From NCBI RefSeq assembly GCF_016592615.1, contig NZ_AP013043.1, positions 720,001 to 752,000 on the forward strand: a DNA stretch of 32,000 bases. The letters run 5' to 3'. The stretch's first letter is position 1. Each line of letters begins with the position of its first letter. The notes below the pieces were generated by a model. The model searched no databases. It worked only from the letters and a program-made list of their open reading frames with translations, and was not told the DNA's origin. Made by a program: the position numbers and the translations under genes. Below, piece after piece: positions 1,802 through 25,024 of the stretch. This DNA comes from Isorropodon fossajaponicum endosymbiont JTNG4 (lineage in GTDB: Bacteria > Pseudomonadota > Gammaproteobacteria > PS1 > Pseudothioglobaceae).

Positions 1802-1802
1802 T

Positions 1803-2726: not shown

Positions 2727-3175
2727 AGCGATAATTGGGCAATTTCTATTGGGATTTGGGTTTGTTTGCTGAGTGAGTCAAGATTGTCAAGTTGTTTATG
2801 CCAAATATCCTCATCCCATAATTCAAAATTATGCCCCTGGCCACTCATGATAATTTTTTTATCTATATGGGCATAATGTTTAAGTGTTGAAGGAATTAGA
2901 ATACGCGCTGCCTTGTCCAATTCACAATCAGTGGCATGACCAATGAGTTTGCGTTTTAATCGCTTTGTGTGAATATTTAATGAAGGCAAAACACTAATTT
3001 TTTCTTCCAATATTTGCCAATCTTTTAAGGGATATAACAATAAGCATTCATCATCTGGATGAATGCTTAGCACCATCTTGCCTGAACAAATTTCATCAAT
3101 TTGTGCTTGGTGGCGCGTTGGTATTTTTACCCTTCCCTTAGTATCAACACTTAAATTGTGCACCCCTCTAAACAT
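2723..3175 (-). CDS. mraZ: Transcriptional regulator MraZ
   Basis: 150 aa beginning MFRGVHNLSVDTKGRVKIPTRH, with the duplicated SpoVT/AbrB-like halves typical of MraZ. Normally the first gene of the dcw cluster. Confidence 0.95.
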   Translation of the reverse strand: MFRGVHNLSVDTKGRVKIPTRHQAQIDEICSGKMVLSIHPDDECLLLYPLKDWQILEEKISVLPSLNIHTKRLKRKLIGHATDCELDKAARILIPSTLKHYAHIDKKIIMSGQGHNFELWDEDIWHKQLDNLDSLSKQTQIPIEIAQLSL

Positions 3176-3360
3176 TAGCGATGTTGCTGATATTTTTGCA
3201 TATAGGCTATTACACCCAATATTAAAGCCACAATGGTGATAATTAAAAACGGTTTGGCATTGTTTATTTGGCTTTGTTGTGTGCCCATCAGGGCTAAAAC
3301 ACTCAGAGAAAATACAGATAGGAAAACACTAAGCATAAACTTCAATTTAATTTTTTTCAT
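3175..3360 (-). CDS. Small hypothetical membrane protein (61 aa, two predicted TM helices)
   Basis: ATG preceded by AAAGGAG with a 7-nt spacer. Two hydrophobic stretches (MLSVFLSVFSLSVLALMG and FLIITIVALILGVIAYM). Its stop overlaps the mraZ start (TAATG). It lies downstream of the MraZ-box promoter. Confidence 0.5.
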   Translation of the reverse strand: MKKIKLKFMLSVFLSVFSLSVLALMGTQQSQINNAKPFLIITIVALILGVIAYMQKYQQHR

Positions 3361-3395
3361 ACAAGCACTCCTTTGAATTTAGTTTTAAGGAAAAT

Positions 3396-3430
3396 TTTAT
3401 ACCACTTTTAGACACTTTAGTCCATTTTTA
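3396..3430 (-). promoter_or_regulatory. Candidate dcw promoter overlapped by three 10-bp-phased MraZ-type boxes
   Basis: The minus strand reads TAAAAATGGA CTAAAGTGTC TAAAAGTGGT. These are three direct repeats at exact 10-bp period resembling the AAAGTG(G/T) MraZ box. They overlap a TGGACT-17nt-TATAAA promoter whose -10 is preceded by TGG. Confidence 0.55.
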
Positions 3431-3604
3431 TTTAAAACAATTTAAAAATCTAGCTCATAGTGAAAAGTTGTTAGTGATGGTTTTGGTTTGGAATTTTTTG
3501 TCTAAGTAAAAAAGTTTAGAAATTTATCCCTTCTTGCAGTGCAATGCTCTAACCTACTTGGACACAAAGATAGCCTTATAATACAAACCATAAGGAGGTC
3601 AGTA

Positions 3605-3956
3605 ATGACACAATATAAATCAAGAAAACAACGAGTGACTTTTACCGTTGAACATTCTGTTCAATACCCCCTTGAGGGGGGAACACTAGATTATGCCAAA
3701 CTCATGGTGCATGAGAATTACACCAATAAAAAAAATCATGATAATATCAGGAGCTTGCTCCTCAGCAGTTAGCAGATGGAGAAAACAATACCTAGCAGAG
3801 CTTGGTGGACAAACACCAGAGTCAGGCAAAGCGCTGACTTCTGAACAACAAACAATACAACTGCTTGAGAAACAACTTTGGCGCGCACAAAGGGACAATG
3901 AAATCTTAAAAAAGGCAACAGCCTTGTTCGCTGTGGACAATCACCAAGTGATATGA
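3605..3956 (+). pseudogene. IS3 orfA (HTH protein), frameshifted at an A8 run
   Basis: A strong SD (AAGGAGG) precedes the ATG at 3605. MTQYKSRKQRVTFT... is in one frame and ...SAVSRWRKQYLAELGG...NEILKKATALFA is in the next. The frames join if the A8 run at 3728-3735 were A7. Confidence 0.75.
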
Positions 3957-4675
3957 TTATCAAGATAAACAAGGCTTGCCAACAATACAATACTAAAGAA
4001 TTATGAGCATTACTCAAACTTCCTCGCAGTAGTTATTACTATCAAGTCAAAGATAAGCGAGTAAACAACAACACCAACGCTATGATTAAATTAATCAAAC
4101 AAACTGCTATTGAAGTTGGATACACCTATGGCAAACGCAGAATGCGAGTAGTTTTGAATAACCAAGGTTATAACATTGGTATTTACCAAACTGCAACGCT
4201 AATGAAAAAAGCCAATGTAGTTGCCATACGCCCAAGAAAGCGTCATTATTACCCTAATACTAGATTGATGTTTAAAAAGGCAAAAAACCTATTAAATCGT
4301 GTGTTTGAGCAGCAATCAATTAATACGCATTGGGTTGGTGATATTACCTATATCAAAACCTATCAAGGTGGGAGTTATTTAGCCAGTGTGTTGGATTTAG
4401 GCTCAAGACAAGTTGTTGGTTGGGCATTGTCAAAACAGCCTAATGCTCAGTTGGCAAAGGATGCGCTTAGTAATGCTGTGTCTAGACACCAGCCCAATAC
4501 AAATAAACACATGTTCCACTCTGATCAAGGGACTCAATACTCTTCTAAAGTTTTTATTGATTATTGCAACAAGAACAACATTACTCAAAGCATGAGCAGG
4601 CGAGGTAATTGTTGGGATAATGCGGTCATGGAGCGTTTCTTTAGAAGTCTGAAGACTGAGAGATTAAATTATTAA
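3908..4675 (+). pseudogene. IS3 orfB DDE transposase, with in-frame stops and 3' truncation
   Basis: The -1 frame from A AAA AAG reads ...KEL*ALLKLPRSSYYYQ... (TGA where Cys is expected), then YGKRRM...WVGDITYI...SDQGTQY...NCWDNAVMERFF...LNY* followed by SFANHSEVVQNV. This is a typical IS3 integrase-core signature carrying nonsense mutations. Confidence 0.85.
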
Positions 4676-9318: not shown

Positions 9319-9672
9319 ATGAAGGTTGATAATAATATTAATCAATCGTTAAACCAAGTGCTTAAAGAATCTGACAGCATGATTAAACGTATTTTGTTTT
9401 TAGAAGGCTTGCCAAATTTACAAGATTTAGGCAAGCTCAACATTGACGAAGATGTGCCTGAAGTTTTAACAGCTAATTTAAATATGGAGCTAAGTTTTAG
9501 AGCCATACTTCAAGTAGCGATTGCTAAGGCTGAAAAGGAGAGGGATTATGTGACTCGTGATTGTCTTAAAGAGTGTTTAGAGGCATGTGAAGATAAATTG
9601 GATTATTTTGAAACACAAATTAGCCTACTTTCAAAGGTAGGTACGGACAATTATCATCAATCAATTATGTAA
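9319..9672 (+). CDS. Bacterioferritin-like protein with an internal deletion of the helix A/B region (possible pseudogene)
   Basis: 117 aa. MKVDNNINQSLNQVLK matches the Bfr N-terminus and then jumps to ...MIKRILFLEGLPNLQDLGKLNIDEDV..., which is nearly identical to E. coli Bfr residues about 57-80. An SD (ATAGGAG) precedes the ATG. Confidence 0.7.
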   Translation: MKVDNNINQSLNQVLKESDSMIKRILFLEGLPNLQDLGKLNIDEDVPEVLTANLNMELSFRAILQVAIAKAEKERDYVTRDCLKECLEACEDKLDYFETQISLLSKVGTDNYHQSIM

Positions 9673-9687
9673 TATAGGAGTGTTAAT

Positions 9688-10008
9688 ATGCATGGCAATA
9701 CAAGCCATGCTGATCAAATTATCAAGCGCTTGCTGTTTTTAGAAGCCACACCAGATTTATCAATTCAAGAAGGTTTGAATATTGGTTGTGATGTGACATC
9801 ATGCATTGAAAATGACCTTAAGCTGGAGTATAAAGTGGCAAACGATTTAAAGAGTGCTGTTAAGTTGTGCGAACAAGAGCAGGATTTTGTTACATGCACG
9901 ATGCTGACAAGTCAGCTAGAAGATACCGAGCAAGACCATACTTATTGGCTGGAAAAACAATTGGGCTTGATTGAAAAATTGGGCTTGCAAAATTATATCC
10001 AATCATAA
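9688..10008 (+). CDS. Bacterioferritin-like protein lacking about 50 N-terminal residues (possible pseudogene)
   Basis: 106 aa. It starts at MHGNTSHADQIIKRLLFLE (Bfr helix B, second half) and retains the EDTEQDH and LGLQNY motifs of helices D/E. Its own SD (ATAGGAG) lies 8 nt upstream. Confidence 0.7.
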   Translation: MHGNTSHADQIIKRLLFLEATPDLSIQEGLNIGCDVTSCIENDLKLEYKVANDLKSAVKLCEQEQDFVTCTMLTSQLEDTEQDHTYWLEKQLGLIEKLGLQNYIQS

Positions 10009-10038: not shown

Positions 10039-10067
10039 ATAGCACGATTTTTCGTGCTATCTTTTTA
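10039..10067 (+). terminator. Rho-independent terminator after the bfr-like pair
   Basis: ATAGCACG-attttt-CGTGCTAT forms an 8-bp stem followed by CTTTTTAT. Confidence 0.65.
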
Positions 10068-10102: not shown

Positions 10103-10133
10103 TTGCAATTACAAATGATAATGAGTATCATTT
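10103..10133 (+). promoter_or_regulatory. Sigma70-type promoter (TTGCAA-17nt-TATCAT) overlapped by a Fur box
   Basis: AAATGATA-atgag-TATCATTT is a perfect 8-bp inverted repeat. Its core TGATAATGAGTATCA (10116-10130) differs at one position from the 7-1-7 Fur consensus TGATAATnATTATCA. The -35 lies at 10103-10108 and the -10 at 10126-10131. Confidence 0.7.
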
Positions 10134-10208
10134 GTGTTTAAGCTCTTCAAGAGAAGATGCTTACTAATAAATACTAACAAAAAAAATACAATTTAATGGA
10201 GAAGTTTA

Positions 10209-10286
10209 ATGCAAAAGGAATATTTCATATTGTCACAAAAAGAATTGAAAGATTATTTGGCTTATTTTGATAAGTTGGCTAATTAA
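10209..10286 (+). CDS. Candidate 25-aa small ORF downstream of the Fur promoter (very tentative)
   Basis: GGAG at 10198-10201 lies 7 nt before the ATG. The peptide is MQKEYFILSQKELKDYLAYFDKLAN. There is no recognisable family, and it may instead be part of a non-coding leader or sRNA. Confidence 0.2.
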   Translation: MQKEYFILSQKELKDYLAYFDKLAN

Positions 10287-11160
10287 TTAACACAGGTTAG
10301 AAATGTATTGCTTATCTCTGTTCGCTAATTATCTCCGATAGCAATCATTTCAACACCGCCTCATGCTCTTAAATCAAGTGTGAGGCAAACCAAAAAATGC
10401 ATGACGGGTTTATCTCAATCCCTCAAATTCAATGGGTAAATTGGTTATGCTGGCTAGCCCCAGCCTTGTAGGGGCAATTATTTAACATGGAAAAATAAAT
10501 GAAAAACAAAAATAACCACCGATACAACAAATTTAGCAGGAAAAAATATCATAACACCATCAAGTAAATCTAAGTCTTGCCATGATTGCTGTGGTGGTTG
10601 TGCTAATAAAATATAAGTATGTTTGGTTTTTGGCAAAAATATAAACTTAGTTACCTGCGTAGTCATAATCGACTAGATTTAGATTCTATGTGGCGTTTTA
10701 ATTTGCCAAACCAAATGATTAAACAAACATTTCTTGATGAAATAAAGAAAGACTCAAGCAATCATTTTGAATAAGAATCGGGAGTACGAAAAGAGTGATT
10801 ATTAATAAAATTAAATTAAGTGCAAATACTAGATCTATGGAAATTAGTTTAATTAATAGCGTGGCTAAGTATTTAAGAGATTTTAATGATTCACTTTTAA
10901 TTGAGAATGAACTTGATTTGAATGAAATTCAGCTATTAAATAATATCTTTGCTTGTTAAGTTGTTTGAGCTGCTAAGAAAATGATATATCACAAAATTCT
11001 TATATTGTATTGCAAATAAGAACTGATATCATTTACTAACTCAAAAAATTAACCCTCTAACAAAAATAAAAGAAGGTGAATGAAGAGTGATGCGTATAAG
11101 CATCAAATTTGCAGGAATAGTTCTGCGACATTTCTAATTAAAATATATAGGATAGACACA

Positions 11161-12047
11161 ATGAAAAGAAATAAGGTAATAGCATTAAGTATGTTAATTG
11201 TTGGCACAACTGTACTTGCAGATACAGAATATAGATACATTAAAAGATCGTATTACTGCTTTAGAGACAACGCAATCAGCAACAAGTGTTAGTGGTTTGA
11301 TTGAAATGGTATACAGTTCAAGTAATGACAAGGTTGAGTTTGGCGATTTAGAACTGACTGTTTCACATGCAGTAAATGAGCAGTTTGATGGCACAATCAA
11401 AGTTAAAAGAAGAGGGGAAGATGACCCCACTAAAGAAGACGATATTATTTTAGATGAGGCAATGATTAATTATCACAATGGTGGCTTTACAGCTAGTATA
11501 GGTCGTATTGGCGTGCCATTTAGTGCTTATGAAACTGGCATGATAACAGACCCACTTACCAAGGGCATAACGAGTGCTGATAAGGGGGCAGCAAAGATAT
11601 GCTAATTTAAGCGATGTTCAAGCTTCTATTTATAGTTATAAAGACACTGATAACGATACTGGTATTAGTATTAATTATGGCAATGATATTTTTAGTGCTG
11701 GCATAGATTACTTCAAAGATGGCACAACAGGTTACGACAGTTCTAATGCTTATCATTTAGGAGTTAGTTTGGACAATGGCTTGGGCTTTTATTATGAAGC
11801 TGTGAAAACTAACCAAAGCGTTGCAAATAGCATTAAGGCACAACATACTGAGTTGAGTTATGCTCACCAATTAAAAGGCATGGATGCTAGTCTTAATTTG
11901 GCTTATAGTAAGATTGATGATGGCGATAAGCAAAAAGGTTTGACTTATAGTCTTTCACTAGCAGAAGGTGTTACTGTCTTTTTTGAAAACAAAAAAGTGG
12001 ATGGACAAAAAGCAGTCAATGGCTTAAAAGTTGCTTACGAATTCTAA
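11161..12047 (+). pseudogene. Outer-membrane porin-like beta-barrel protein, split over three frames
   Basis: The signal peptide MKRNKVIALSMLIVGTTVLA (frame 1) continues as IDTLKDRITALETTQSATSVSGLIEMVY... (frame 2). It then continues as ...ANLSDVQASIYSYKD...GLTYSLSLAEGVTVFFENKK...LKVAYEF* (frame 3). The sequence shows alternating beta-strand patterns and a terminal Phe typical of OM barrels. One shift lies near 11225-11235 and one near the G5 run at about 11583-11587. Confidence 0.6.
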
Positions 12048-12096
12048 TGAAAGCAAATATTTTGAGTAAAATTTTTAAATTTAAGGAGAAATACAC

Positions 12097-13404
12097 ATGA
12101 AAGTACAAAAAAAATTGATAGTTTCATCTGCTTTAACAGTGGCAATGGCAATCTCTACTGTAAGCGCATTTTGGGGTAGTGATGAGGCTAACCCATTGTT
12201 AAGTACTTATGCAAACATTGCAACGGCAAACTACACGGATGCTTTAAATGGTGCTAAAACACTAAAGGAAAAGCTCAGAGATTTTACTAATCGTCCCACA
12301 ATAGTTTTGATGGAAAATGCTAAAGCAGCATGGCTAAATGCTCGTGAATCTTATGGTCAAACGGAAGCGTTCAGATTGTCTAATGGACCTATTGATGCAG
12401 AGGAAGGTTGGTACACGTCTTATGGTGCGCCAGAAGGGCAATTAAATGCTTGGCCGTTAGATGAAAATATGATTGATTATACGACTAATGCTAAGGGTAG
12501 GAAAACGTCAGGTAATATTATTGACACCAAAGGCATATTCAATCCAGGTGGTGAAAACCCAACAGCGGTTGATGTCAGTATAATTACTCCTAGTGTATTA
12601 GCGGCTCTTAATGAAAATGGTGGCGATGCTAATGTTGCAACGGGCTATCACGCAATTGAATTTTTATTATGGGGTCAAGACCAAGATTATACTAATTTTA
12701 TGAAAGATAGTGTAACCAATGGTGCGTTGGTAGCAGGTCAAAGAGCGCTTTCTGATTATACGACTAATGCAAATGCTGATCGTCGCAAGGAATATTTAAA
12801 TGCAGCAGCAAGTCTAATTGTTTCTGATTTAGAGTCAATGGTTTCAGCTTGGGCAGATGGTGATAGCACTAATTACAAGGCAGCGTTATTGGGTAAAAAT
12901 TCTGATGCAACTAAGAATATTGACACGAAAGTAGCATTAAGACAAATCTTTTCTGGTTTGGGTGTTTTTATTAAGTCCGAGCTTGCTAATGAGCGTATCG
13001 CAGTGGCGGTGCTTACACCTTCTGAAGAGGACGAGCACAGTTGTTTTTCTGATAACACGCATCGTGATATTACGCAAAATTTCCAAGGCTTTAAGAATTT
13101 GTTGTTTGGTACTTATGATGGTGTTGACTATGGCGTAGCACCTATTGATGCGATGAAAGATAAAACCAAGTTGATGGATTTAATTGCATCGGCTAATGCC
13201 AAAATTAATCAAATGAATACATTGGCACAAGTGAGCCGTCATTTTGATTATCAAATTCGCCCGAATGATACACAAGCTAGACAAATCAAAAAACTTAAAA
13301 ATGAGTTAAGAGCTATTGGCGATCAAATGATTTATGTGGCAAAATCAAATGGTGTTGATTTGACGGTTGGAGATATAACGGATGTTGAGGAAACCAAACT
13401 ATAA
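12097..13404 (+). CDS. Imelysin family (peptidase M75 / IrpA-like) periplasmic protein
   Basis: 435 aa with a signal peptide (MKVQKKLIVSSALTVAMAISTVSA) and the imelysin HxxE signature in GYHAIEFLLWGQD. Confidence 0.8.
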   Translation: MKVQKKLIVSSALTVAMAISTVSAFWGSDEANPLLSTYANIATANYTDALNGAKTLKEKLRDFTNRPTIVLMENAKAAWLNARESYGQTEAFRLSNGPIDAEEGWYTSYGAPEGQLNAWPLDENMIDYTTNAKGRKTSGNIIDTKGIFNPGGENPTAVDVSIITPSVLAALNENGGDANVATGYHAIEFLLWGQDQDYTNFMKDSVTNGALVAGQRALSDYTTNANADRRKEYLNAAASLIVSDLESMVSAWADGDSTNYKAALLGKNSDATKNIDTKVALRQIFSGLGVFIKSELANERIAVAVLTPSEEDEHSCFSDNTHRDITQNFQGFKNLLFGTYDGVDYGVAPIDAMKDKTKLMDLIASANAKINQMNTLAQVSRHFDYQIRPNDTQARQIKKLKNELRAIGDQMIYVAKSNGVDLTVGDITDVEETKL

Positions 13405-14749
13405 ACGTTTAGTAATTCTTAGCATATCAACCCTTGCTGTTAGTCTAATGGCAAGGGTTTTTGCTAATGGCTTAGAAGATTTATCAACCCGTATATTAAA
13501 CCAATCTTTTACACAAATTCAGCTTGACTTAAATAATGATGAGGTGGATGAGTTTATTTTAGGCAAAAGTTTTTTTCGCATTCCTTGGGTTCAAGCACCT
13601 TCTGCAACAACAGCACGTGATGGATTAGGCCCGTTATTTAGTGCCAATACTTGTGTTAATTGTCATGCAAAAAATGGTCGCGGCAAAGTATTTGAAGCAA
13701 ACAATATTGTTGATAAGTCGCATGTGATACGCTTGTCTATACTGTCCAATGGCACCGATGAACATCAGCGTATGACGGCCAAAATTGGCTTTATTCCTGA
13801 GCCAAGTTATGGCGCTCAAATTAGTATTAATGGTGTGTTAGGTGTGCCTTTTGAAGCCAAGCCCTTAGTGCATTATTCAACTAAAGATATTTACTATCCT
13901 GATGGCGTTATTGTTACCTTGCAGAAACCAACAATTAAGTTAAAAAATTTAGGTTATGGCGATTTACACCCTAATACAATTGTCAGTGCTAGGATTGCAC
14001 CAGCACTTGTGGGATTGGGTTTATTAGAGCAAATTACTGATGCGCAAATCCTAGCCAATGAAGATGTTCATGATGCTAATCATGATGGCATTTCTGGCAA
14101 AGCCAATCGAGTTTGGTCAAGTCAAATCAGGCAAATGGAGATTGGTCGCTATACTTGGAAGGCTTCTGCACCAACGGTAAGGCATCAATCAGCTAATGCT
14201 GCTATTAATGATATGGGTTTGACTAATCCTATTCATGAACATCAGTCGTGTACGCCAATACAAGTTGCATGTATTAATGCTTCAAAAGACGGGGAAAAGC
14301 ATGAGCTGACAGCACAAAGATTAAGCGCCATTAGTTACTATTTGACACACTTAAAATTGCCAAAATCTATTGTTAAAGAACATCAAGGACAAAGACTATT
14401 CTCTGAAATTGGCTGCTCGCAATGCCACGTTCCAAGTTACTCACTACCCAACACTACTATATATCCATATAGTGATTTTCTATTGCATGATATGGGGAAG
14501 GGTTTGGCAGATTCTCGTTCAGAGTTTGATGCCTTGGGCAATGAATGGCGTACACCACCATTATGGAGACTGGGTAGAGCTGCTTTAATACTCAAAGATA
14601 ATAAGAATTTTTTGCATGATGGTCGTGCACGCAACCTTGAACAAGCAATCCTTTGGCATGGTGGTGAGGCTGAAAAGTCTAAAACTTTGTTTATGAATTT
14701 ACCTATTAATAGTAGGGGTAAAATATTGCAATTTTTGAATGAAATATAG
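13382..14749 (+). CDS. DUF1111 di-haem cytochrome c peroxidase-like protein (often annotated as thiol oxidoreductase)
   Basis: 455 aa with a signal peptide and two CxxCH haem motifs (CVNCH and CSQCH). It ends ...LWHGGEAE.... It overlaps the preceding gene by 23 nt. Confidence 0.8.
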   Translation: MLRKPNYKRLVILSISTLAVSLMARVFANGLEDLSTRILNQSFTQIQLDLNNDEVDEFILGKSFFRIPWVQAPSATTARDGLGPLFSANTCVNCHAKNGRGKVFEANNIVDKSHVIRLSILSNGTDEHQRMTAKIGFIPEPSYGAQISINGVLGVPFEAKPLVHYSTKDIYYPDGVIVTLQKPTIKLKNLGYGDLHPNTIVSARIAPALVGLGLLEQITDAQILANEDVHDANHDGISGKANRVWSSQIRQMEIGRYTWKASAPTVRHQSANAAINDMGLTNPIHEHQSCTPIQVACINASKDGEKHELTAQRLSAISYYLTHLKLPKSIVKEHQGQRLFSEIGCSQCHVPSYSLPNTTIYPYSDFLLHDMGKGLADSRSEFDALGNEWRTPPLWRLGRAALILKDNKNFLHDGRARNLEQAILWHGGEAEKSKTLFMNLPINSRGKILQFLNEI

Positions 14750-14758
14750 GGCGAATTG

Positions 14759-15724
14759 ATGAAATACTTGATGGCGGTTGTTTTTTTGCTTGTGTCAGTT
14801 GGTGTAAATGCAGTTGGCGAAAAATTCTTTAACCAAGTTATTATTGTTAATGCTGTATCAGCTATTAAAAATGCTGAGTTGTTGATTGATAGTATTAACC
14901 AATCTAATCAGACAGTCGTTAAAAGGCAATTTGGTAACTTAGTTTCAAGTTGGAAAAAAGTCGAAACCACTTATTTATTAGGTGATTTAAATGAGGATTA
15001 TTTAGACACACCAAGATATATTGATATATTTCATGGCAATAATGAGAATATCAAATCTCAACTAGATTTAATTAATAATAATAATGATGTGCTATCTAGT
15101 GCTATGTACAAGCATTTACATAAAACCATTAACGCCTTGGAATATATACTTTTTACAAAAGATTTGTCCCATCAAAGGGTTAAAAATATGGCGTTAATGA
15201 TTACTAGGTCAATCAAAAACTATTTGTCTGAAATTCTAAATGGTTATAAGGCACATCAATCAAAATTTCCTGAAAGCGAGCAATATGCCAGTGCAATTTT
15301 GCTAAATACTTTGGTTGACGGTACTTATAAACTTAAAGAGTGGCGTATTGGTGATGTGGCTAGTTTGAGTAAGAAATTTAAGAATAGACCAAACAATCAT
15401 AGGGCAGAATACGCAATTAGTGGCAATAGCATGAATGCCATTAAAGCCATTCTTGCAGCACAAGTTCAGGTTATTAATTCACCAGATTATCAAGATTTCG
15501 GCGATATTGCGCGTCAATTTAAAGCAATCAAAGAGATTAACCAAGCCATTAGCGCATTAAATGATTCAATTGCTAATGCGAATGATATGTCCGAGTTTGA
15601 TTTTATTAATAACAAGGGTAGGCGCTTATACCAGTCAACCAATAGGCTTATGCAAGCTTATTATATTTCTTTAATGGACAGACTGGGATTTGTCTCTAAG
15701 GTATTGGATGCTGATGGAGATTAA
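14759..15724 (+). CDS. Imelysin-like protein lacking the metal-binding His
   Basis: About 321 aa with a signal peptide (MKYLMAVVFLLVSVGVNA). The position equivalent to HxxE reads INALEYILF (NxxE). It occupies the position of the second, divergent imelysin paralogue in imelysin/DUF1111 clusters. Confidence 0.65.
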   Translation: MKYLMAVVFLLVSVGVNAVGEKFFNQVIIVNAVSAIKNAELLIDSINQSNQTVVKRQFGNLVSSWKKVETTYLLGDLNEDYLDTPRYIDIFHGNNENIKSQLDLINNNNDVLSSAMYKHLHKTINALEYILFTKDLSHQRVKNMALMITRSIKNYLSEILNGYKAHQSKFPESEQYASAILLNTLVDGTYKLKEWRIGDVASLSKKFKNRPNNHRAEYAISGNSMNAIKAILAAQVQVINSPDYQDFGDIARQFKAIKEINQAISALNDSIANANDMSEFDFINNKGRRLYQSTNRLMQAYYISLMDRLGFVSKVLDADGD

Positions 15725-16676
15725 TCCACTTGAATATTTAATAAACCCTCATAAGCGAATTTATTGGCTGTTTTTGTTAAGTTCACTGGTGATTGCTTTT
15801 ATTTTTTTAAAGCATCATCCAAAACAAAAGTGTATTATTTTGTCAAAAAAACTGTGGCTACACTCTTCTAGTTTATTGGATTATGGCTATTTCATTTTTT
15901 CTGTATTTTTTAAAGTTATGGTTATTTTGCCAATACTGATGAGTGCTAAAGAAGTGGCATTATTTGTTAATATTACTTTATTAGATCAATACGGTTTTGT
16001 ACGTATAGATGGCTTTTCTTATGTGCAAGTGATGGTGATATTTACACTTAGTTTATTTATTTTAAGCGATTTCACCCGCTACTGGTTACATCGTCTATTG
16101 CACTTTGTGTCATGGTTGTGGGCGTTTCATAAAGTGCACCACAGTGCCAAAGTTTTAAATCCATTGACGTTTTATCGAGTGCATCCTGTGGAATCCTTGT
16201 TATTCGGCTTGCGTTATTCCATGAGTATTGGTTTTGTGACGGGTATTTTTGTATTTTTATTTGGCAGCTTGGTGGGTGTTTATGATATTTTAGGGGCTAA
16301 TTTATTTTCTTTTATGTTTTCATTATTAGGCTCTAATCTTAGGCATTCACATATTAAGTTAGGTTTTGGCAATGTGGTTGAGCGATTTTTAATTTCTCCA
16401 CTACAACATCAAATTCACCATTCTAGAAACCATGTTAATACCAATTTTGGTGGTTTTTTGTCAATCTGGGATTATCTATTTGGTACATTAACCCTTTCAA
16501 AAAATGTAACTAATATTAAATTTGGCTTAGAAAAGGCGCAGATGAAAAACTTTCAAAGCCTGCAAGGTTTATTACTTTTCCCTTTTGTTGCTATTTATAA
16601 GCAAATAAAAAGCAAACATTTTATATCGTATTTTGTAGCATTATGCCAATTTCAAAGACTAAAAAAAGAACAATGA
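15708..16676 (+). CDS. Fatty acid hydroxylase / sterol desaturase superfamily integral membrane protein
   Basis: It has multiple TM helices and the three His boxes HRLLH, HKVHH and HQIHH of membrane di-iron hydroxylases. The start is ambiguous (15690, 15708 or 15714) and overlaps the end of the preceding gene. Confidence 0.8.
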   Translation: MLMEINPLEYLINPHKRIYWLFLLSSLVIAFIFLKHHPKQKCIILSKKLWLHSSSLLDYGYFIFSVFFKVMVILPILMSAKEVALFVNITLLDQYGFVRIDGFSYVQVMVIFTLSLFILSDFTRYWLHRLLHFVSWLWAFHKVHHSAKVLNPLTFYRVHPVESLLFGLRYSMSIGFVTGIFVFLFGSLVGVYDILGANLFSFMFSLLGSNLRHSHIKLGFGNVVERFLISPLQHQIHHSRNHVNTNFGGFLSIWDYLFGTLTLSKNVTNIKFGLEKAQMKNFQSLQGLLLFPFVAIYKQIKSKHFISYFVALCQFQRLKKEQ

Positions 16677-18370
16677 AACGTAGAGATTTTATTAAAACAT
16701 CCATATTGGCTAGCAGCGCTTTGGCGATAGGCTGCAGTGATAAAAAGTCTGCCAAATTGTCCCTGCCTGACTACGCAGATAGAACTTTTGTTGTGCCACC
16801 ACTCATTGAGCCTGAAATTATTAATGGTAAAAAGATTTTTAAATTTTCAATCAATCACAACACAACAGAAATTTTTAAAGGCAAGTTAACCCGTGTATTG
16901 GGCTATGGTAATAGCCTTCTAGGCCCAACTATTCGGGTGAATAATACAGATGATATAGGATTTGAAATAACCAATCATTTGTCAGTCAACACCACCACGC
17001 ATTTTCATGGATTGCATTTGCCAGCCAAAGAAGATGGCGGTCCGTATCAAATTATTCCACCTAATAAGACGTGGAAACCCAGCTGGCGTATCAATCAATT
17101 AGCCTCAACCCAGTGGTATCACCCACATCTTGAGGGTTATACGGGTGAGCAAGTGTATAAAGGTATGGCGGGTTTTTTCTTAATTGATGATGAAACATCC
17201 AAATCATTAGACATTCCTAAAACCTATGGTGTTGATGATTTACCCATGGTGATTCAAGATAGGCGGTTTGATGAAGATGCCCAATTGCTTTATTTAAATA
17301 AGGGCGATTTTGATAAATCAGGTGGCATGAAAGGGCATACAATTTTGGTGAATGGCAGACCTGTGCCTATTTTAAATGCACACGCCCAAGTGATTAGATT
17401 GAGAATACTCAATGGCTCTAATGCAAGAATTTACAATTTGGGCTTCGAAGGTGACATTCAGTTTTATCAAATTGCTAGTGATGGTGGTTTTTTAGAAAAA
17501 CCAGTGCCGCTCACTCGGGTGTTATTAGGTCCTGCAGAACGCGTGGAAATTTTGCTTGATTTGAGTAAAAATAAGGGAAAAACCTTACGACTAAAAAGTT
17601 TCAGTGCTGAATATTATGACAAACAAAAGCTTAATGGACATCAGTTTGGCGGGCCATTTAAAGTAGGTGGTACAGGTCGTCTGTCGCATTCAGTAGATGC
17701 GCTAGACAAAGTCAATTTTGATATTATGAGTATCCACGTTAGTCAATCAACTAGCACCAATGCTGTTAAAAAAATTCCTAGTAAACTCACCAAAATAACC
17801 CGATTAAAAGCATCAGATGCCGTTAAAACTAGGTATTTTGGATTAACAGTCATGAGTGGTTTTAGAATCAACAGACGAGTGTTTACCTCCATGTTTAAAA
17901 CCATCAACGGTATTGCGCTTGAAGGCGAGCATATGTTGCATTTAATTAACGGCATGCAAATGGACATGAGTATGATTAATGAAGTGGTTAAAAAAGGTGA
18001 TATTGAAATTTGGCGAATTACCAATGGTGCGCACACCACACATCCTTTTCATATTCATGACATTCAGTTTCAAATTCTTGATAGGGAACAAGGTGATGGC
18101 TCGGACCCAATACCACCTAATGAAAATGAGTGTGGCTGGAAAGACACTGTACTACTCATGCCAGAAGAAACCGTACGAGTGATTGCTAAATTTGACCACT
18201 ACGCTGATACTGAGTATCCTTATATGTATCATTGCCACATATTAGAACATGAGGATGCAGGCATGATGGGACAGTTTTTGGTAGTGGAGCCAGAGGATTT
18301 TGACACGGTCATGGCTGATATTGATAACAATAAAAGAATACCATTAAAGTCTTTTTGCAAGGTTAGTTAA
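16673..18370 (+). CDS. Three-domain multicopper oxidase (CueO-like), Tat-exported lipoprotein
   Basis: It has the twin-arginine signal MKRRDFIKTSILASSALAIGC with an AIGC lipobox. Copper motifs are HFHGLH, WYHPH, HPFHIHD and HCHILEHEDAGMMGQF. Its ATG overlaps the upstream stop (ATGA). Confidence 0.9.
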   Translation: MKRRDFIKTSILASSALAIGCSDKKSAKLSLPDYADRTFVVPPLIEPEIINGKKIFKFSINHNTTEIFKGKLTRVLGYGNSLLGPTIRVNNTDDIGFEITNHLSVNTTTHFHGLHLPAKEDGGPYQIIPPNKTWKPSWRINQLASTQWYHPHLEGYTGEQVYKGMAGFFLIDDETSKSLDIPKTYGVDDLPMVIQDRRFDEDAQLLYLNKGDFDKSGGMKGHTILVNGRPVPILNAHAQVIRLRILNGSNARIYNLGFEGDIQFYQIASDGGFLEKPVPLTRVLLGPAERVEILLDLSKNKGKTLRLKSFSAEYYDKQKLNGHQFGGPFKVGGTGRLSHSVDALDKVNFDIMSIHVSQSTSTNAVKKIPSKLTKITRLKASDAVKTRYFGLTVMSGFRINRRVFTSMFKTINGIALEGEHMLHLINGMQMDMSMINEVVKKGDIEIWRITNGAHTTHPFHIHDIQFQILDREQGDGSDPIPPNENECGWKDTVLLMPEETVRVIAKFDHYADTEYPYMYHCHILEHEDAGMMGQFLVVEPEDFDTVMADIDNNKRIPLKSFCKVS

Positions 18371-18396
18371 CCATGGCATTCTTTTTAGTTATCTTG

Positions 18397-18419
18397 TATA
18401 ATGATGAGAATCATTCTCA
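18397..18419 (+). promoter_or_regulatory. TATAAT -10 element plus Fur box upstream of the ABC ATPase gene
   Basis: TATAAT lies at 18397-18402. The perfect palindrome TGAGAAT-C-ATTCTCA at 18405-18419 has one mismatch per half-site to TGATAATnATTATCA. It lies 14 nt before the ATG at 18433. Confidence 0.6.
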
Positions 18420-18432
18420 TTTTTATTATTAA

Positions 18433-19083
18433 ATGCTATCAATTAACGATTTATCAATTGCTTATCAAACCACTCAAGTTTTAAATGAATTTAATTTGAG
18501 CCTTGCTACAGGTGATATTTTTGCATTAACAGGCGATAGTGGTAGTGGAAAAAGCTCAGCACTTAGATTTATTGCTGGTCTTGATGAGGTGCAAAGTGGA
18601 CAAGTAGTTTTAGATGGTAAGCAATTATCCAACAATGGCGTACATAAAATAGCACCAGAATTAAGAGAGATAGGCATGGTGTTTCAAGATTATGCGTTAT
18701 TCCCGCATATGAATGTTAAAAAAAACATTGCTTTTGGTATTCACTATTTATCAAACAGCGAACAAAAAGCAAGGATTGAAGAATTGCTTTTGATGATTGA
18801 CTTAGAGGGTATCGAGAAAAAATACCCACACCAGCTTTCAGGTGGAGAGCAACAGCGTGTTGCCTTGGCTCGTGCATTAGCACCCTCGCCAAAATTATTA
18901 TTATTGGATGAACCATTTTCTAGTTTAGATAAGAACCTTCAAGAACAACTAGTGTTACAAGTTAGAGATATTTTAAAAAAAACCAACGTCACTTCCATTC
19001 TAGTAACACACGACAAACATGAGGCGACTATTTTTGCTGATAAAGTAGGGGTGATCGAGAATAGGCAGTTGACTATTAATTAA
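18433..19083 (+). CDS. fbpC: ABC transporter ATP-binding protein, Fe(3+) importer type, NBD only
   Basis: 216 aa with Walker A GDSGSGKSS, signature LSGGEQQR, Walker B LLLLDEP and H-loop VTHD. It lacks the C-terminal regulatory domain usually present in FbpC-type ATPases. Confidence 0.75.
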   Translation: MLSINDLSIAYQTTQVLNEFNLSLATGDIFALTGDSGSGKSSALRFIAGLDEVQSGQVVLDGKQLSNNGVHKIAPELREIGMVFQDYALFPHMNVKKNIAFGIHYLSNSEQKARIEELLLMIDLEGIEKKYPHQLSGGEQQRVALARALAPSPKLLLLDEPFSSLDKNLQEQLVLQVRDILKKTNVTSILVTHDKHEATIFADKVGVIENRQLTIN

Positions 19084-19103
19084 TAATAGATATCATTTGT
19101 AAT

Positions 19104-19118
19104 TGATAATCATTATCA
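19104..19118 (+). promoter_or_regulatory. Consensus Fur box upstream of fbpA
   Basis: TGATAAT-C-ATTATCA is an exact match to the 7-1-7 Fur consensus. It is flanked by further GATAAT-like hexamers and lies 43 nt before the ATG at 19161. Confidence 0.85.
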
Positions 19119-19160
19119 ATCGTGTAACTTAGTCAATTTTTCATAAGGAGAAAAATCAGA

Positions 19161-20180
19161 ATGAATAAAAAAACATGGGTACCATCAATATTGGTAGTGT
19201 TGGCACTGGTAGTAACTAGTGTTGGCATAGCACAAGCAAAAAGTGAAGACTCAGTCACCGTATACAGCTCTAGAAAAGAGCATCTAATTAAGCCATTATT
19301 TGAGTCTTTTACAAAAGATACAGGTATTAAAGTGACGTACTTAACGGGTAAAGGCGGTGCATTGATTGAGCGTTTAAAATTGGAAGGTAAAAATACCAAA
19401 GCTGACATGTTCATGACCGTAGATGCGGGCAATCTTTGGTATGCAGCCACACAGGGTTTGTTTCAAGCAGTACAAACACAAACATTAAAAAGCAATATTC
19501 CAAGCCATTTAAGAGACCCTAAAGGTTTGTGGACGGGTTTATCGGTGCGTGCAAGAACCATCGTTTATAGCACTGAACGTGTTAATCCAACTGATTTATC
19601 CACTTATGAGAATTTGGCAGATGCTAAATGGTCAGGTAGGTTGTGCTTAAGAACCAGTAAAAAGATTTATACCAAATCATTGGTGGCATCGATAATTTAT
19701 CATCAAGGCAAAAATAAAGCAGGTGATATTATTAGTGGTTGGGTGAATAATTTGGCAGCCACGCCCAACGCTAAAGATTCTCATATTATGAATGCAATTG
19801 TTTCAGGTCAATGTGATGTTGGCTTGGTAAATACTTATTATTTTGGTCGTTTAATTGCTAAAAACACTAATGTACCATTGAAGCTATTTTGGGCAAATCA
19901 GGATACCACGGGTGTACACGTGAATGTATCAGGCGTTGGCGTGACAAAATATGCCACCAATGCCAAGGGTGCTATTAAATTATTAGAGTGGTTATCAGGT
20001 GCTAAAGCGCAAGCTATTTATGCCTCGCTTAATAAAGAATACCCAGCCAATCAAAATGTTGCTTCAGATGAAGTGGTATCAAGTTGGGGCTCGTTCAAAC
20101 AAGATAAAATGAATTTGGCGCAAACGGGTGTATTGCAAGCTGATGCAGTGAAGTTAATGCAAATAAAAGGTTACAGATAG
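19161..20180 (+). CDS. fbpA: Fe(3+) ABC transporter periplasmic binding protein
   Basis: 339 aa with an SD (AAGGAG) and a signal peptide ending AQA. It has FbpA/AfuA-like features (VTVYSS..., DMFMTVDAGNL, GLVNTYY). Confidence 0.85.
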   Translation: MNKKTWVPSILVVLALVVTSVGIAQAKSEDSVTVYSSRKEHLIKPLFESFTKDTGIKVTYLTGKGGALIERLKLEGKNTKADMFMTVDAGNLWYAATQGLFQAVQTQTLKSNIPSHLRDPKGLWTGLSVRARTIVYSTERVNPTDLSTYENLADAKWSGRLCLRTSKKIYTKSLVASIIYHQGKNKAGDIISGWVNNLAATPNAKDSHIMNAIVSGQCDVGLVNTYYFGRLIAKNTNVPLKLFWANQDTTGVHVNVSGVGVTKYATNAKGAIKLLEWLSGAKAQAIYASLNKEYPANQNVASDEVVSSWGSFKQDKMNLAQTGVLQADAVKLMQIKGYR

Positions 20181-20200
20181 ACTCTTTTTTATATGTTATA

Positions 20201-20239
20201 AACCTAAGGCTTAGGAAAGTCTTAGGTTCTTCTGTTTTT
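20201..20239 (+). terminator. Hairpin / attenuating terminator between fbpA and fbpB
   Basis: AACCTAAG-12nt-CTTAGGTT forms an 8-bp stem followed by CTTCTGTTTTT. This is the common arrangement that gives excess binding-protein mRNA. Confidence 0.55.
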
Positions 20240-20273
20240 AAAATAGTATTAGTAAAAATTAAAAAGAAGTATT

Positions 20274-21881
20274 TTGGAAAAAAACTGCCTTAAATCAAAA
20301 ATTTGGATTAGTGTATTGGCACTATTAGTGGCTATGCCAATTTTTGTCGTGGCTTTATCGTGGTTGTTTCCAGAGCGTGAATTGTGGGCACATTTTTCCA
20401 CTGTTTTATTACCAAGTTTAATCAGTGCTACTGTGGTTTTACTTATTGGTGTAGGGCTAGGCGTTACACTTTTGGGTACAATTTTAGCGTATTTGGTGGT
20501 GATGGTGGAATTTCCCGGTAGACGATGGCTAGAGTGGGCGTTGTTTCTGCCTTTTGCCATTCCTGCATACGTACTGGCTTTTGTATATTTAGGTGTGTTT
20601 GATTATTCTGGCTATGCACAAGTGTGGATGCGTGAAGTGTTGGGCTTGCCAGGATTTGATATCCGCACTGGATCGTGGGCGATTATTCTTACTTTTGTGT
20701 TGGTATTTTACCCTTATGTATACATGATGGCACGCGCCTCATTTAAACGCCAAAAGATTAATATAATTGAAGCCGGTCAATTGTTAGGCGCCAGTCCTTT
20801 ACGTGTGTTTTTTAAAATATCTCTACCCATGGCACGCCCAGCTGTTGCTGCTGGATTGCTAGTAACGTTGATGGAAACACTGGCTGATTTTGGCGTGGTT
20901 AGTTTGTTTAATTTTGATACTTTTACTACGGTAATTTATTCGGCTTGGGGTGATTTTCGTTCCATTGAATTGGCAGCACAATTAGCATCATTATTAGTGT
21001 TAGTGGCATTTTTCTTAATTTTTTTTGAAAAAAAAGCACGTGGTCAAGCAAAATATTATTCAAATGACGTATCTAATAAAAAGCCTTACTATGCTTTAGG
21101 CTTTTTTGGCTGGCTGATTAGTTTGTTTGTGTTTTGTGTGTTTATGCTTTCTTTTGCTATGCCTATGTTGCAATTAATCATTTGGGGTTGGGCGTCTATG
21201 GGTCAGGAATGGAGTGTTAAGTATGTTGATTTGATTATTTCAACTTCGGTGTTAACCACATCAGCCGCTTTAATAACGGTGAGTATTGCTATTATATTGG
21301 CATTACCCAATCGTTGTAAAAGGAACAGTCCTTGGCTTAAAGGTTTGATTAGTATGGCAACGTTAGGATATGCATTACCAGGCTCAATTATGGCTGTTGG
21401 GTTATTATATGGCATTAATCAAGTGTCAGAAATCAGTGTATATTTTGGAGGTCAAAGTATTAATCATATTATTTTTGGCTCCATTGCTTTGTTGTTATTT
21501 GCTTATGTATCTCGTTTTATGGCAATTGGTTATAGTTCCATTAAAGCCAGTGCCGAGCAAATTAAGCCCGTGTTTACCCAAAGCGCACGTCTGCTTGGTG
21601 CGTCACGCTTACGTCTTATTTGGCAAATATACTTACCCATGATGACGCCAGGAATTTTGGCAGGTGGTCTGTTGGTGGCTGTTGATGTGATGAAAGAATT
21701 ACCAGCCACTTATTTATTACGCCCATTTGGCTGGGATACATTAGCAGTTCAGGTGTATGAATTAAGTGCTGAAGGTTTGTTTGAACGAGCCGCTGTACCG
21801 GCACTTATAATGGTATTATTCGGCGCAGTGCTAATGTTGATATTTCAATTATTGGATAAAAAATCTTCAAAAAACCTTTAA
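20274..21881 (+). CDS. fbpB: Fe(3+) ABC transporter permease (duplicated two-domain type)
   Basis: 535 aa, highly hydrophobic, with two MalFG-type EAA-loop regions (EAGQLLGASPLRVFFKISLP and QSARLLGASRLRLIWQIYLP). The apparent start is TTG at 20274, with no in-frame ATG upstream. Confidence 0.85.
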   Translation: MEKNCLKSKIWISVLALLVAMPIFVVALSWLFPERELWAHFSTVLLPSLISATVVLLIGVGLGVTLLGTILAYLVVMVEFPGRRWLEWALFLPFAIPAYVLAFVYLGVFDYSGYAQVWMREVLGLPGFDIRTGSWAIILTFVLVFYPYVYMMARASFKRQKINIIEAGQLLGASPLRVFFKISLPMARPAVAAGLLVTLMETLADFGVVSLFNFDTFTTVIYSAWGDFRSIELAAQLASLLVLVAFFLIFFEKKARGQAKYYSNDVSNKKPYYALGFFGWLISLFVFCVFMLSFAMPMLQLIIWGWASMGQEWSVKYVDLIISTSVLTTSAALITVSIAIILALPNRCKRNSPWLKGLISMATLGYALPGSIMAVGLLYGINQVSEISVYFGGQSINHIIFGSIALLLFAYVSRFMAIGYSSIKASAEQIKPVFTQSARLLGASRLRLIWQIYLPMMTPGILAGGLLVAVDVMKELPATYLLRPFGWDTLAVQVYELSAEGLFERAAVPALIMVLFGAVLMLIFQLLDKKSSKNL

Positions 21882-24272: not shown

Positions 24273-25024
24273 ATGGAACTAATTCCTTATTTTGAGTTTG
24301 TTTTACCGCTGATATTTTTTGTGGTGGCGTTTGTGTATTCCTCCATTGGTCTTGGCGGTGGTTCGTCTTATACAGCATTGATGGTGATTGTTGGTATGAG
24401 TACATTAGTTGTTCCTATGATGTCTTTGTCGCTTAATTTGTTTGTTAGCACTTTAGGTAGTTATAATTTTTTGCGCAATAAACACGGCAAGTTGTCTATT
24501 ATTTTGCCATTTTTGATATCTGCCATACCTTTTGCCTATCTGGGCGGCACATTACATTTGTCAAAAACTACATTTTTATGGGTATTATTAATGTCACTTA
24601 TTGTGGTTGCTGTGCGTATTTATTTTTGGAAAAATGCTGGCTTTAGACTAGATTTAAACCATCAGAAAAAATCATCATCCCTTTAGTTTCTGGTTCAATA
24701 CTTGGGTTGGTTTCAGGTATTGTTGGTATAGGTGGTGGGATATATTTAATCCCTATTATGTTTAGAATTGGCTCCCCAAAAGAGGCGGCAGCAACAGCTG
24801 CAATTTTTGTTTGGAGTGTGTCATTTTCTGGGCTTGTTTCATGCTTGCAATATAACTCGATTGATTTAACACAGTATATGCCACTTATTGCAGCAGTCAT
24901 TATTGGTGGCTTTTTGGGTTCCTATATAGGTTCATTTAGATTGAGTCCAAAAGCCATGGAAAAAATATTAGGTCTTATTATTTTAGTAGCGATTGCATTT
25001 TTATTTAAAAAGTTATTGTTTTAA
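24273..25024 (+). pseudogene. TauE/SafE (DUF81) family anion/sulfite exporter, frameshifted at an A6 run
   Basis: The two halves lie in different frames: ...SSIGLGGGSSYTALMV... and ...KIIIPLVSGSILGLVSGIVGIGGGIYLIP.... They would join into a normal protein of about 250 aa if the A6 run at 24666-24671 changed length by one. Confidence 0.75.

Follow-up and report, generated by a model that had tools for sequence, protein, structure and literature searches.

A probable iron-acquisition cassette of the imelysin type, with a multicopper oxidase gene in its fifth slot, in the Isorropodon fossajaponicum endosymbiont

The five-gene cassette and its ferric importer

The 32,000-nucleotide stretch analyzed here, referred to throughout as the window, corresponds to positions 720,001 to 752,000 of contig NZ_AP013043.1 of the Isorropodon fossajaponicum endosymbiont JTNG4; it has about 36% G+C and encodes a form II RuBisCO with CbbQ and CbbO downstream of the genes described below. 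Operons that combine imelysins with a DUF1111 protein are widespread and iron-regulated; in Pseudomonas, Vibrio, Leptospira, and Bacteroidetes they have been connected with virulence or with symbiosis. The window carries a locus of this kind, in which five packed genes (12097-18370) encode an imelysin, a protein of the DHOR family (formerly DUF1111), an imelysin-like protein, an FA_hydroxylase membrane protein (FAH), and a Tat-exported multicopper oxidase (MCO), and are followed by genes for FbpC, FbpA, and FbpB. We consider it very probable that this is an iron-acquisition cassette of the imelysin type. All of the family assignments in an earlier first-pass annotation of the window were borne out by a Pfam profile search of its open reading frames (ORFs), and the eight genes are as follows.

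12097-13404, + strand: imelysin M75a, IcmP/PA4370 type, with a Sec signal; Peptidase_M75, 208.6 bits, 2e-61
13382-14749, + strand: DHOR (former DUF1111) di-heme protein; Pfam, 250 bits, 4.9e-74
14759-15724 (alternative start 14756), + strand: imelysin-like M75b; Peptidase_M75, 44.3 bits, 2.3e-11
15708-16676 (alternative start 15690), + strand: FAH, inner-membrane protein of di-iron type; Pfam, 89.8 bits, 2.6e-25
16673-18370 (alternative start 16643), + strand: Tat-exported MCO, probably a lipoprotein; Cu-oxidase_3 and Cu-oxidase_2
18433-19083, + strand: FbpC-like ABC ATPase; ABC_tran, and 198 bits to the ferric ABC ATPase model
19161-20180, + strand: periplasmic Fe(III)-binding protein of the FbpA/FutA class; E 1.8e-102 to 7li0
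20274-21881, + strand: FbpB-like double permease; two BPD_transp_1 stretches

The first five genes have an operon-like arrangement, and the overlaps and gap originally proposed for them agree with the coordinates. The M75a and DHOR genes overlap by 23 nt, DHOR and M75b are separated by 9 nt (counting from the ATG at 14759), M75b and FAH overlap by 17 nt (counting from the ATG at 15708), and the FAH and MCO genes share an ATGA at 16673-16676. No strong terminator-like hairpin is present on the + strand within 12097-18370, where there is only a weak 5-pair stem (13777-13790) inside the DHOR gene; further downstream, a 12-bp hairpin with a T-run lies between fbpA and fbpB (20201-20228, + strand). 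The ORFs of all eight genes from M75a to FbpB are intact with their families confirmed, and comparison of the window with its counterparts in Candidatus Vesicomyosocius okutanii and in survey locus L085 (see below) gives Ka/Ks values of 0.07-0.31 for all eight. The lowest values are those of the MCO (0.07-0.13), which ranks at or near the bottom in every comparison and is under strong purifying selection while neighboring genes decay.

The two imelysins differ in their metal-site motifs. M75a scores far above the Peptidase_M75 cut-off (208.6 versus 23.5 bits), matches the solved structure of IcmP (PA4370; 7xrx, E 9.5e-57), and has both the GxHxxE motif (G183-Y-H185-A-I-E188, or GYHAIE) and an acidic loop (E310-E311-D312-E313-H314), each at least 90% conserved in 44 homologues. 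M75b scores 44.3 bits against the same cut-off of 23.5 and reads T-I-N-A-L-E129 at the motif, so that the His is missing, as in the IPPA/PA4372 group (PMC3143127), and the Gly is replaced too; its ALE129 and a C-terminal ADGD are conserved in 48 homologues, and a sequence search found no relative in the PDB. DHOR (250 bits; cut-off 22) has CxxCH motifs at residues 91 and 345, conserved in 47 homologues, and a sequence search likewise found no relative with a solved structure. DHOR occurs in a short form (331-349 aa; L003, L007, L085, L088, and L090) and a long one (443-455 aa; the window, L004, L005, L006, and L091); short and long forms within SUP05 are about 46-50% identical, as against 60-80% for the flanking genes, and the two CxxCH motifs are kept in the long forms and in the short ones checked (L003 and L007).

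FAH is well above its Pfam cut-off (89.8 versus 31 bits), and its His boxes (HRLLH, HKVHH, HSH, and HQIHH) are invariant, with H128, H132, H141, H144, H145, H213, H215, H234, H237, and H238 the same in all 52 sequences. Its AF2 model has a pLDDT of 81 and gave no Foldseek match against the PDB, and its score against the OlsE model is 48 bits, where the cut-off is 475. The closest relatives of the window proteins come from vesicomyid-clam symbionts akin to Candidatus Ruthia and from other bacteria of the SUP05 clade; FAH shares 92% identity with a protein of Ruthia sp. Asou_11_S2. Exact look-up returned no record for either the window ORF (TTG start) or protein P0127. In the window and L091, FAH has a C-terminal extension of about 20 residues (16600-16676) with no counterpart in V. 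okutanii and most homologues, and it is this extension that creates the ATGA overlap with the MCO gene. The MCO shows four copper-ligand motifs in translation (THFHGLH, WYHPH, HPFHIH, and HCHILEHEDAGMM), and its Tat motif RRDFIKTS and lipobox Cys are conserved in four orthologues; it is 94% identical to a protein of GCA_030142985 and 88% identical to that of V. okutanii.

With a binding protein of the Fe(3+) class, a double permease, and an ATPase, the window FbpCAB is, as judged from sequence, an Fe(III) ABC importer. The closest solved relative of FbpA is 7li0, the substrate-binding protein of an Fe(3+) ABC system (E 1.8e-102), followed by the structures of FutA1, FutA2, and FbpA. The likeness to known FbpABC and FutABC systems thus extends to a binding protein near solved Fe(3+) binders, the double permease, the ATPase, and the presence of Fur boxes; the window system differs in its gene order (C-A-B), in having separate Fur boxes before C and A, and in being joined to an imelysin cassette.

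Fur boxes were sought with a 19-mer consensus by counting mismatches, with mononucleotide shuffles of the window as background, and sites of the quality of the three intergenic boxes occur 0.58 times per 32 kb in the shuffled sequence. Each of these three lies on or beside a promoter-like hexamer pair, and they are the ones first placed near 10103, 18405, and 19104, found here with 3-4 mismatches. The weaker site originally noted at about 11012-11034 has more than six mismatches and is thus poor as a match to the consensus, but it is conserved in relatives and aligns with a better box in SUP05 loci. The four sites are listed here.

10103-10135, + strand: Fur-box promoter TTGCAA-17-TATCAT; palindrome ACAAATGATA-atgag-TATCATTTGT, box at 10111-10135 with 4 mismatches
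11010-11036, + strand: degenerate Fur-like site/promoter upstream of a porin gene; more than 6 mismatches to the 19-mer
18397-18424, + strand: Fur box overlapping the -10 of the fbpC promoter; box at 18400-18424 with 4 mismatches
19099-19123, + strand: Fur box upstream of fbpA; TTGATAATCATTATCAA palindrome with 3 mismatches

The promoter at 10103-10135 is kept in L003 and L007, about 1.05-1.1 kb upstream of the porin gene, and in the window a strong terminator (10039-10060) separates it from two bacterioferritin (bfr) genes. The degenerate site is conserved in L091 and in L004 (V. okutanii), and its aligned counterpart in L003 and L007 is a better Fur-like box (ATGCAAATGATAACTGGTATCATT). Homologues of the box at the fbpC promoter are found in L004, L091, L085, and L090, and that before fbpA is present in L005, L006, and L090 and lost in L004 and L091. 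From these sites the locus is predicted to be controlled by Fur and induced by iron limitation.

Distribution of the cassette and exchange of its fifth gene

Gene neighborhoods were surveyed in one genome per species with the FAH protein as the anchor; 80 loci were returned, loci from exact-protein look-ups were added, and all were annotated with the window proteins as references. Imelysin genes accompany FAH in nearly all 80 FAH-anchored loci, and two architectures can be distinguished. The first is M75a-DHOR-M75b-FAH followed by a MauG-like gene (CCP_MauG), all on one strand, which is present in 42 loci drawn from several phyla, with further loci truncated at contig ends. Among its carriers are SUP05/Thioglobus, many genera of Campylobacterota, Bisgaardia, Advenella, Pelistega, and Moraxella, and they include members of the Pasteurellaceae and Alcaligenaceae; in 26 of 41 distinct loci the 150 bp preceding the first cassette gene contain a Fur box with no more than four mismatches. 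The second architecture, a DUF4856 lipoprotein gene followed by genes for an imelysin, a TonB-dependent receptor (TBDT), and FAH, is found in about 24 of 34 loci (among L056-L084; for example L075, 3512-14102), with Colwellia, Pseudoalteromonas, Thalassotalea, Psychrobium, and Shewanella among the carriers, and is rearranged or shortened in Flavobacteria, SAR324, and Neptuniibacter. Fur boxes precede the DUF4856 gene in several of these loci, and FbpABC lies directly downstream in seven loci across this architecture and its variants. Cassettes with a porin carry heme or copper oxidoreductases, and those with a TonB receptor (DUF4856-M75-TBDT-FAH-FbpABC) do not. This subfamily of FAH is therefore almost always encoded with an imelysin, in two settings, and often beside a ferric ABC importer.

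Importers of the Fbp type adjoin the cassette in varying positions and orientations in L003, L005, L006, L011, L022, L028, L035, L085, and L090; L015 has FbpA only, at a contig end, and in L085-L087 FeoAB follows FbpCAB. This variation suggests that linkage of a ferric importer to the cassette arose independently on several occasions. The connection to iron acquisition first drawn from the window alone is thus strengthened, both by the Fur boxes of the surveyed loci and by ferric ABC importers adjacent in several independent arrangements.

Other genes accompany the cassette in some lineages. The first gene of Arcobacter-type cassettes encodes a 129-aa protein with no credible match in Pfam or NCBIfam. 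In some Campylobacterota a gene for a secreted protein of 444-456 aa lies between the FAH and MauG-like genes (L032, 10012-11382; L038, 9879-11213; L040, 5854-7188); this protein has a coiled-coil N-terminus and a weak match to an outer-membrane beta-barrel, and may be the cassette porin in another position. A DUF2325 gene recurs near cassettes of unrelated genomes (L001, 17464-17766; L092, 1632-2798; L093, 9213-10391; L094, 6884-8062), adjoining further Fur boxes in L001.

The window matches the first architecture in genes 1-4 and has an MCO gene in place of the MauG-like one, and is thus a variant of it. The first-pass annotation had proposed to look for co-occurrence of the exact gene set across genomes; the four genes with a fifth slot are widespread, but among the 94 loci the MCO version is restricted to the window, L091, L004, and L085-L087, the last three being metagenome-assembled contigs of one uncultured gammaproteobacterial lineage in which the porin gene is intact. 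The suggestion that an MCO is a general part of the system therefore has to be given up, the fifth gene being MauG-like in 42 loci and the MCO occurring only in some symbionts of the SUP05 clade. The exchange is clearest in L090, from a Catillopecten symbiont, which has the synteny of the window (cation efflux gene, cassette, FbpCAB, and ArgJ): in L090 the order is FAH-MauG-like-FbpCAB-ArgJ, as against FAH-MCO-FbpCAB-ArgJ in the window, L091, and L004, and the Fur-box spacer before fbpC is homologous. Spacing of the FAH and MCO genes varies from the ATGA overlap (window and L091) to 3 nt (L085) and about 60 nt (L004), and the two groups of MCO are 77-78% identical, a divergence about that of FbpA.

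The history of the exchange is not simple. First, the tree of flanking genes groups MCO-type L085 with MauG-type L003 and L007 at 100% bootstrap; the swap is thus incongruent with the flanking genes, and a single replacement event is rejected because L085 falls inside the MauG-type group. Second, differential decay of an ancestor with both genes is not supported, as no remnant of an MCO gene was found in MauG-type loci, nor of a MauG-like gene in MCO-type loci. Third, the idea that the MCO type tracks symbiosis is also rejected, since symbionts of Bathymodiolus heckerae and Catillopecten carry the MauG-like type.

FAH and the MauG-like enzyme are joined in some lineages. In L049 the two form one 695-aa ORF (1732-3819), and 14 clusters (P0241-P0254) of similar fusions, each with the two Pfam domains, are 675-736 aa long and share 45-50% identity with the L049 protein used as query; those of L092 (7001-9079), L093 (7001-9043), L094 (4672-6714), and L049 are each encoded by the fourth gene of an M75-DHOR-M75 cassette. 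The existence of such fusions suggests that the products of the FAH gene and the fifth gene act as a unit. The fusion linker consists of a basic stretch and then a former signal-peptide helix, which would place the C-terminus of FAH in the cytoplasm and the heme domain in the periplasm; together with the positive-inside rule, this linker indicates that the His boxes and di-iron site of FAH probably face the cytoplasm. FAH had initially been read as a passenger, a view that does not fit the most consistent partner of imelysin systems, fused in some lineages to the enzyme of the fifth slot. A separate protein of 550 aa, P0276, combines a cupredoxin domain (PF00127) with CCP_MauG and hints that MauG-like enzymes exchange electrons with blue-copper domains.

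Parts of this cassette have been described before. Operons in which two imelysin-like proteins flank a DUF1111 di-heme protein are known as Fur-regulated units in PA4370-PA4373 and VC1264-VC1266, and a role in iron uptake was proposed for imelysin operons without a mechanism (PMC3143127). The likeness to the window is close, with the same order of an HxxE imelysin, a DUF1111/DHOR protein, and an imelysin-like protein lacking the motif His, and with Fur boxes upstream. The window cassette differs in that it continues with FAH and a fifth oxidoreductase, and in that M75a has a plain Sec signal rather than a lipoprotein signal. The fourth gene of the Pseudomonas and Vibrio operons presumably encodes a DUF1513 protein. 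An M75-cytochrome-M75 operon in Leptospira responds to H2O2 and to low iron (PMC7567364), and responses to iron, and to Fur or H2O2, are on record for homologous operons of Pseudomonas, Vibrio, and Leptospira (PMC3143127, PMC7567364). The imelysin-DHOR-imelysin core is thus already in the literature, contrary to the initial view of an undescribed system, and the locus represents one variant, restricted in lineage, of a cassette that is widespread. What is apparently undescribed is the fixed five-gene form, the constant presence of FAH as a partner that is sometimes fused, and the interchange of MauG-like enzyme and MCO in nature; a literature search found no paper linking imelysin clusters to an MCO or to FAH, a sterol desaturase, or a fatty acid hydroxylase, and one on iron uptake in vesicomyid symbionts found nothing useful.

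The EfeUOB/EfeM systems of E. coli, B. subtilis, and P. syringae (PMC9174327) also combine an HxxE M75 protein with a periplasmic heme peroxidase in an iron-regulated operon, and the fusion of M75 to a cupredoxin domain in EfeO parallels the pairing of M75 and MCO in the window. In contrast, the heme proteins of the window are of the c-type di-heme kind and unrelated to DyP peroxidases, FAH is present, and import is presumably via an ABC transporter. EfeB, with which DHOR had been equated, was called a DUF1111 member in one study (PMC3143127) and is a DyP peroxidase (PMC9174327), so that the parallel with DHOR is one of analogy and not of homology. The absence of an Ftr1/EfeU permease, noted from the start, stands: no match to the EfeU/FTR1 permease or DyP families was found in the eleven ORFs scanned (those of 11198-21881 and the two bfr ORFs at 9319-10008).

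The upstream stretch and other features of the window

The promoter at 10103-10135 does not abut the M75a gene; it is followed in order by four small ORFs, the second Fur-like site, a porin pseudogene, and the cassette. The first reading had overlooked both the frameshifted porin gene and the small ORFs of this interval, which are as follows.

10209-10286, + strand: small ORF 1, 25 aa; conserved at the protein level in L003 and L007
10499-10616, + strand: small ORF 2, about 38 aa, broken, with Cys-rich C-terminus SCHDCCGGC; apparently frameshifted
10619-10774, + strand: small ORF 3, 51 aa; 47-48% identity to the L003 copy
10795-10959, + strand: small ORF 4, 54 aa; 66% identity to the L003 copy
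11161-12047, + strand: putative outer-membrane porin pseudogene, LbtU-like; two frameshifts

All four small ORFs are conserved as proteins in L003 and L007. L006 retains ORF 3 and ORF 4 (about 47% and 56% identical to the L003 copies, respectively) along with a diverged Cys-rich ORF, and a remnant of ORF 4 is seen in V. okutanii. ORF 2 is intact in L003 and L007 (44-45 aa), where it ends in a motif of the CTGCCGDC type (CTGCCGDC in L003); in the window its ATG frame stops at 10567 and the Cys motif, of the CxxCCxxC type, is in another frame. Gene calls in L088 match the small ORFs by size and position. None of the four has a credible match in Pfam or NCBIfam; small proteins under Fur control, or the precursor of a peptide, are candidate products. 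The window gave no match in Rfam and tRNA scans, and no known Fur-regulated sRNA was seen behind the 10103 promoter.

The porin pseudogene is spread over three frames, one each for the signal peptide, the central portion, and the C-terminal portion with its final YEF. Its orthologues are intact in L091 (292 aa) and in L007, L085, L088, and L090 (303-315 aa), and most of the small-ORF/porin stretch, including the porin gene, is deleted in V. okutanii. The tandem bacterioferritin genes before the promoter are shortened (9319-9672, 117 aa, and 9688-10008, 106 aa, versus 163 and 155 aa in L007), both products lacking the N-terminal helices present in L007, and are probably decaying iron-storage genes.

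Two further features lie away from the locus. An ORF at 4082-4675, surrounded by what are otherwise housekeeping genes, resembles part of an IS3-family transposase (integrase core), and a gene for a TauE/SafE-like membrane protein is apparently split into ORFs at 24273-24686 (137 aa) and 24707-25024 (105 aa), its syntenic counterpart in L091 being a single ORF of 252 aa.

Possible mechanisms of the cassette

The mechanism we propose is periplasmic capture of Fe(II), its oxidation, and hand-over and import of Fe(III), a scheme for and against which we find the case about evenly balanced. Fe(II) would enter the periplasm, originally via the cassette porin that is now a pseudogene in the window, and would be bound by the HxxE imelysin. 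DHOR and/or the oxidase of the fifth slot would oxidize it, an enzyme of the MauG type using H2O2, or O2 and a reductant, and an MCO using O2; Fe(III) would then be passed to FbpA and imported by FbpBC. FAH, in the inner membrane, and the product of the fifth gene, a periplasmic oxidoreductase anchored to the membrane, would operate together as one unit. We infer the substrate, the redox direction, and the hand-over to FbpA from the genes present and their sequences.

Several observations argue for oxidation of Fe(II). First, the fifth slot holds one or the other of two oxidant-reducing enzymes of different chemistry, but not both. Second, ferric importers seem to have joined the cassette independently several times. 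Third, the heme and copper oxidoreductases go with porin-type cassettes and not with those of the TonB-receptor type, which fits an oxidation step needed only where Fe(II) is the form that enters. Other points weigh against this scheme. A di-iron site of FAH that faces the cytoplasm appears hard to place in a periplasmic redox chain, and the chemistry of MauG, the closest characterized relative of the displaced enzyme, is the modification of a partner protein and not the oxidation of a metal ion. No ferroxidase signature is recognized in the MCO, where the residue four before HPFH is Ala and not acidic. The porin assignment is weak (27-36 bits to LbtU_sider_porin, with a cut-off of 90), and no Fbp importer is encoded within 9 kb in the majority of cassette loci.

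A more specific proposal, which we put forward tentatively and regard as doubtful, is that FAH and the tethered or adjacent MauG-type enzyme or MCO, being interchangeable, are the missing membrane core of imelysin-dependent uptake. They would constitute a two-sided redox module, with di-iron on the cytoplasmic side and heme or copper on the periplasmic side, that oxidizes imelysin-bound Fe(II) with H2O2 or O2 and feeds a ferric importer. If so, oxidase-dependent iron uptake would have been built from parts unrelated to Fet3/Ftr1 or EfeUOB.

It is possible, but in our judgment unlikely, that the MCO is a copper-homeostasis or general oxidase of the CueO/laccase kind that has replaced a lost MauG-like gene and has no role with iron, leaving a four-gene remnant cassette beside FbpCAB. 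Its best matches by family and structure are CueO and the bilirubin oxidase/laccase type, the closest solved relatives being the bacterial 'bilirubin oxidase' 8z59 and then CueO proteins, and its nearest relative outside the SUP05 clade (51% identity) is a stand-alone gene in a housekeeping context; its confinement to the loci named above and the missing ferroxidase motif favor the same view. The Fet3-type ferroxidase identity originally suggested for it has no mark in the sequence, which is CueO/laccase-like. The resemblance to yeast Fet3p-Ftr1p is by analogy only, a membrane-anchored three-domain MCO lying beside genes for high-affinity Fe(III) uptake; the locus differs in lacking an Ftr1 homologue and in having an MCO of the bacterial CueO/laccase group, in which the ferroxidase residues were not found.

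However, the MCO departs from CueO in sequence. Its score against the CueO model is 374 bits (cut-off 525), it has no Met-rich segment, unlike CueO with its Met-rich helix, and in alignments to CueO chains the substrate/labile-copper ligands D439 and M441 are replaced by Ala and Thr, so that by its sequence it is not a canonical cuprous oxidase. (The labile-copper ligands M355, D360, D439, and M441 are numbered as in E. coli CueO, and the D439 position presumably aligns with D409 of Fet3p.) Further, the MCO keeps the same slot and strand after FAH across three diverged lineages, does not occur together with the MauG-like gene where loci are otherwise syntenic, has a lipoprotein signal as MauG-like proteins do, has no copper-handling gene near it, and is under the strongest purifying selection of the locus in genomes that are losing neighboring genes. 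A ferroxidase role for the MCO is suggested by genomic context only.

Of similarly low probability is the view that FAH and the MauG-like protein form a maturation module, which installs an oxidative modification or cofactor on an imelysin or on DHOR and has no direct action on iron, with the MCO either doing the same job or marking the loss of the step. There are precedents, as MauG acts on methylamine dehydrogenase and MbnH on MbnP. The MauG-like protein of L090 is about 50% identical to MauG of Paracoccus denitrificans (372 bits; classical cytochrome c peroxidases give 67-88 bits), the Tyr294 axial ligand of MauG is kept in 44 of 45 cassette proteins, many of which carry a lipoprotein signal, and the best NCBIfam model is that of the MbnH family (150-166 bits). 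That the protein can be fused to a membrane domain resembling an oxygenase is also more suggestive of a dedicated two-part enzyme than of a free peroxidase. Nonetheless, these scores are under the cut-offs for both MbnH (363) and MauG (444), W93 is present in only 23 of the 45 proteins, and W199 is not conserved. Unlike MauG, which serves in TTQ biosynthesis, and MbnH/MbnP, the displaced enzyme, a MauG-type di-heme protein that keeps the Tyr ligand and whose gene is absent from the window, is not accompanied by methylamine dehydrogenase or MbnP genes. MCO-type cassettes moreover dispense with the MauG-like enzyme yet keep the imelysins and DHOR under purifying selection, and the DUF4856-M75-TBDT-FAH layout has an imelysin and FAH without a MauG-like gene.

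It seems quite improbable that the cassette serves mainly in periplasmic defence against peroxide or oxidative stress, or in the handling of heme or another metal, with iron co-regulation incidental. In favor of such roles are the response of the Leptospira operon to H2O2 in addition to low iron (PMC7567364), the two peroxidase-like di-heme proteins of each cassette, and the heme-uptake genes that adjoin it in L093 and L094. Against them stand the Fur boxes found at most cassette promoters, the ferric ABC importers and FeoAB that recur beside the cassette, and the conserved HxxE metal site, and an O2-reducing MCO cannot stand in for a peroxide scavenger.

For imelysin systems in general, the fixed five-gene cassette, the FAH partner that is sometimes fused, and the natural replacement of a MauG-like enzyme by an MCO provide concrete handles, and they flag one FAH subfamily as a component of iron uptake rather than, by default, a lipid enzyme. 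The genome-reduced symbionts keep the cassette intact while neighboring iron genes decay. If the enzymes of the fifth slot are truly interchangeable, then what the cassette needs is a generic oxidant-coupled step, which is the central claim of the proposed model of Fe(II) oxidation.

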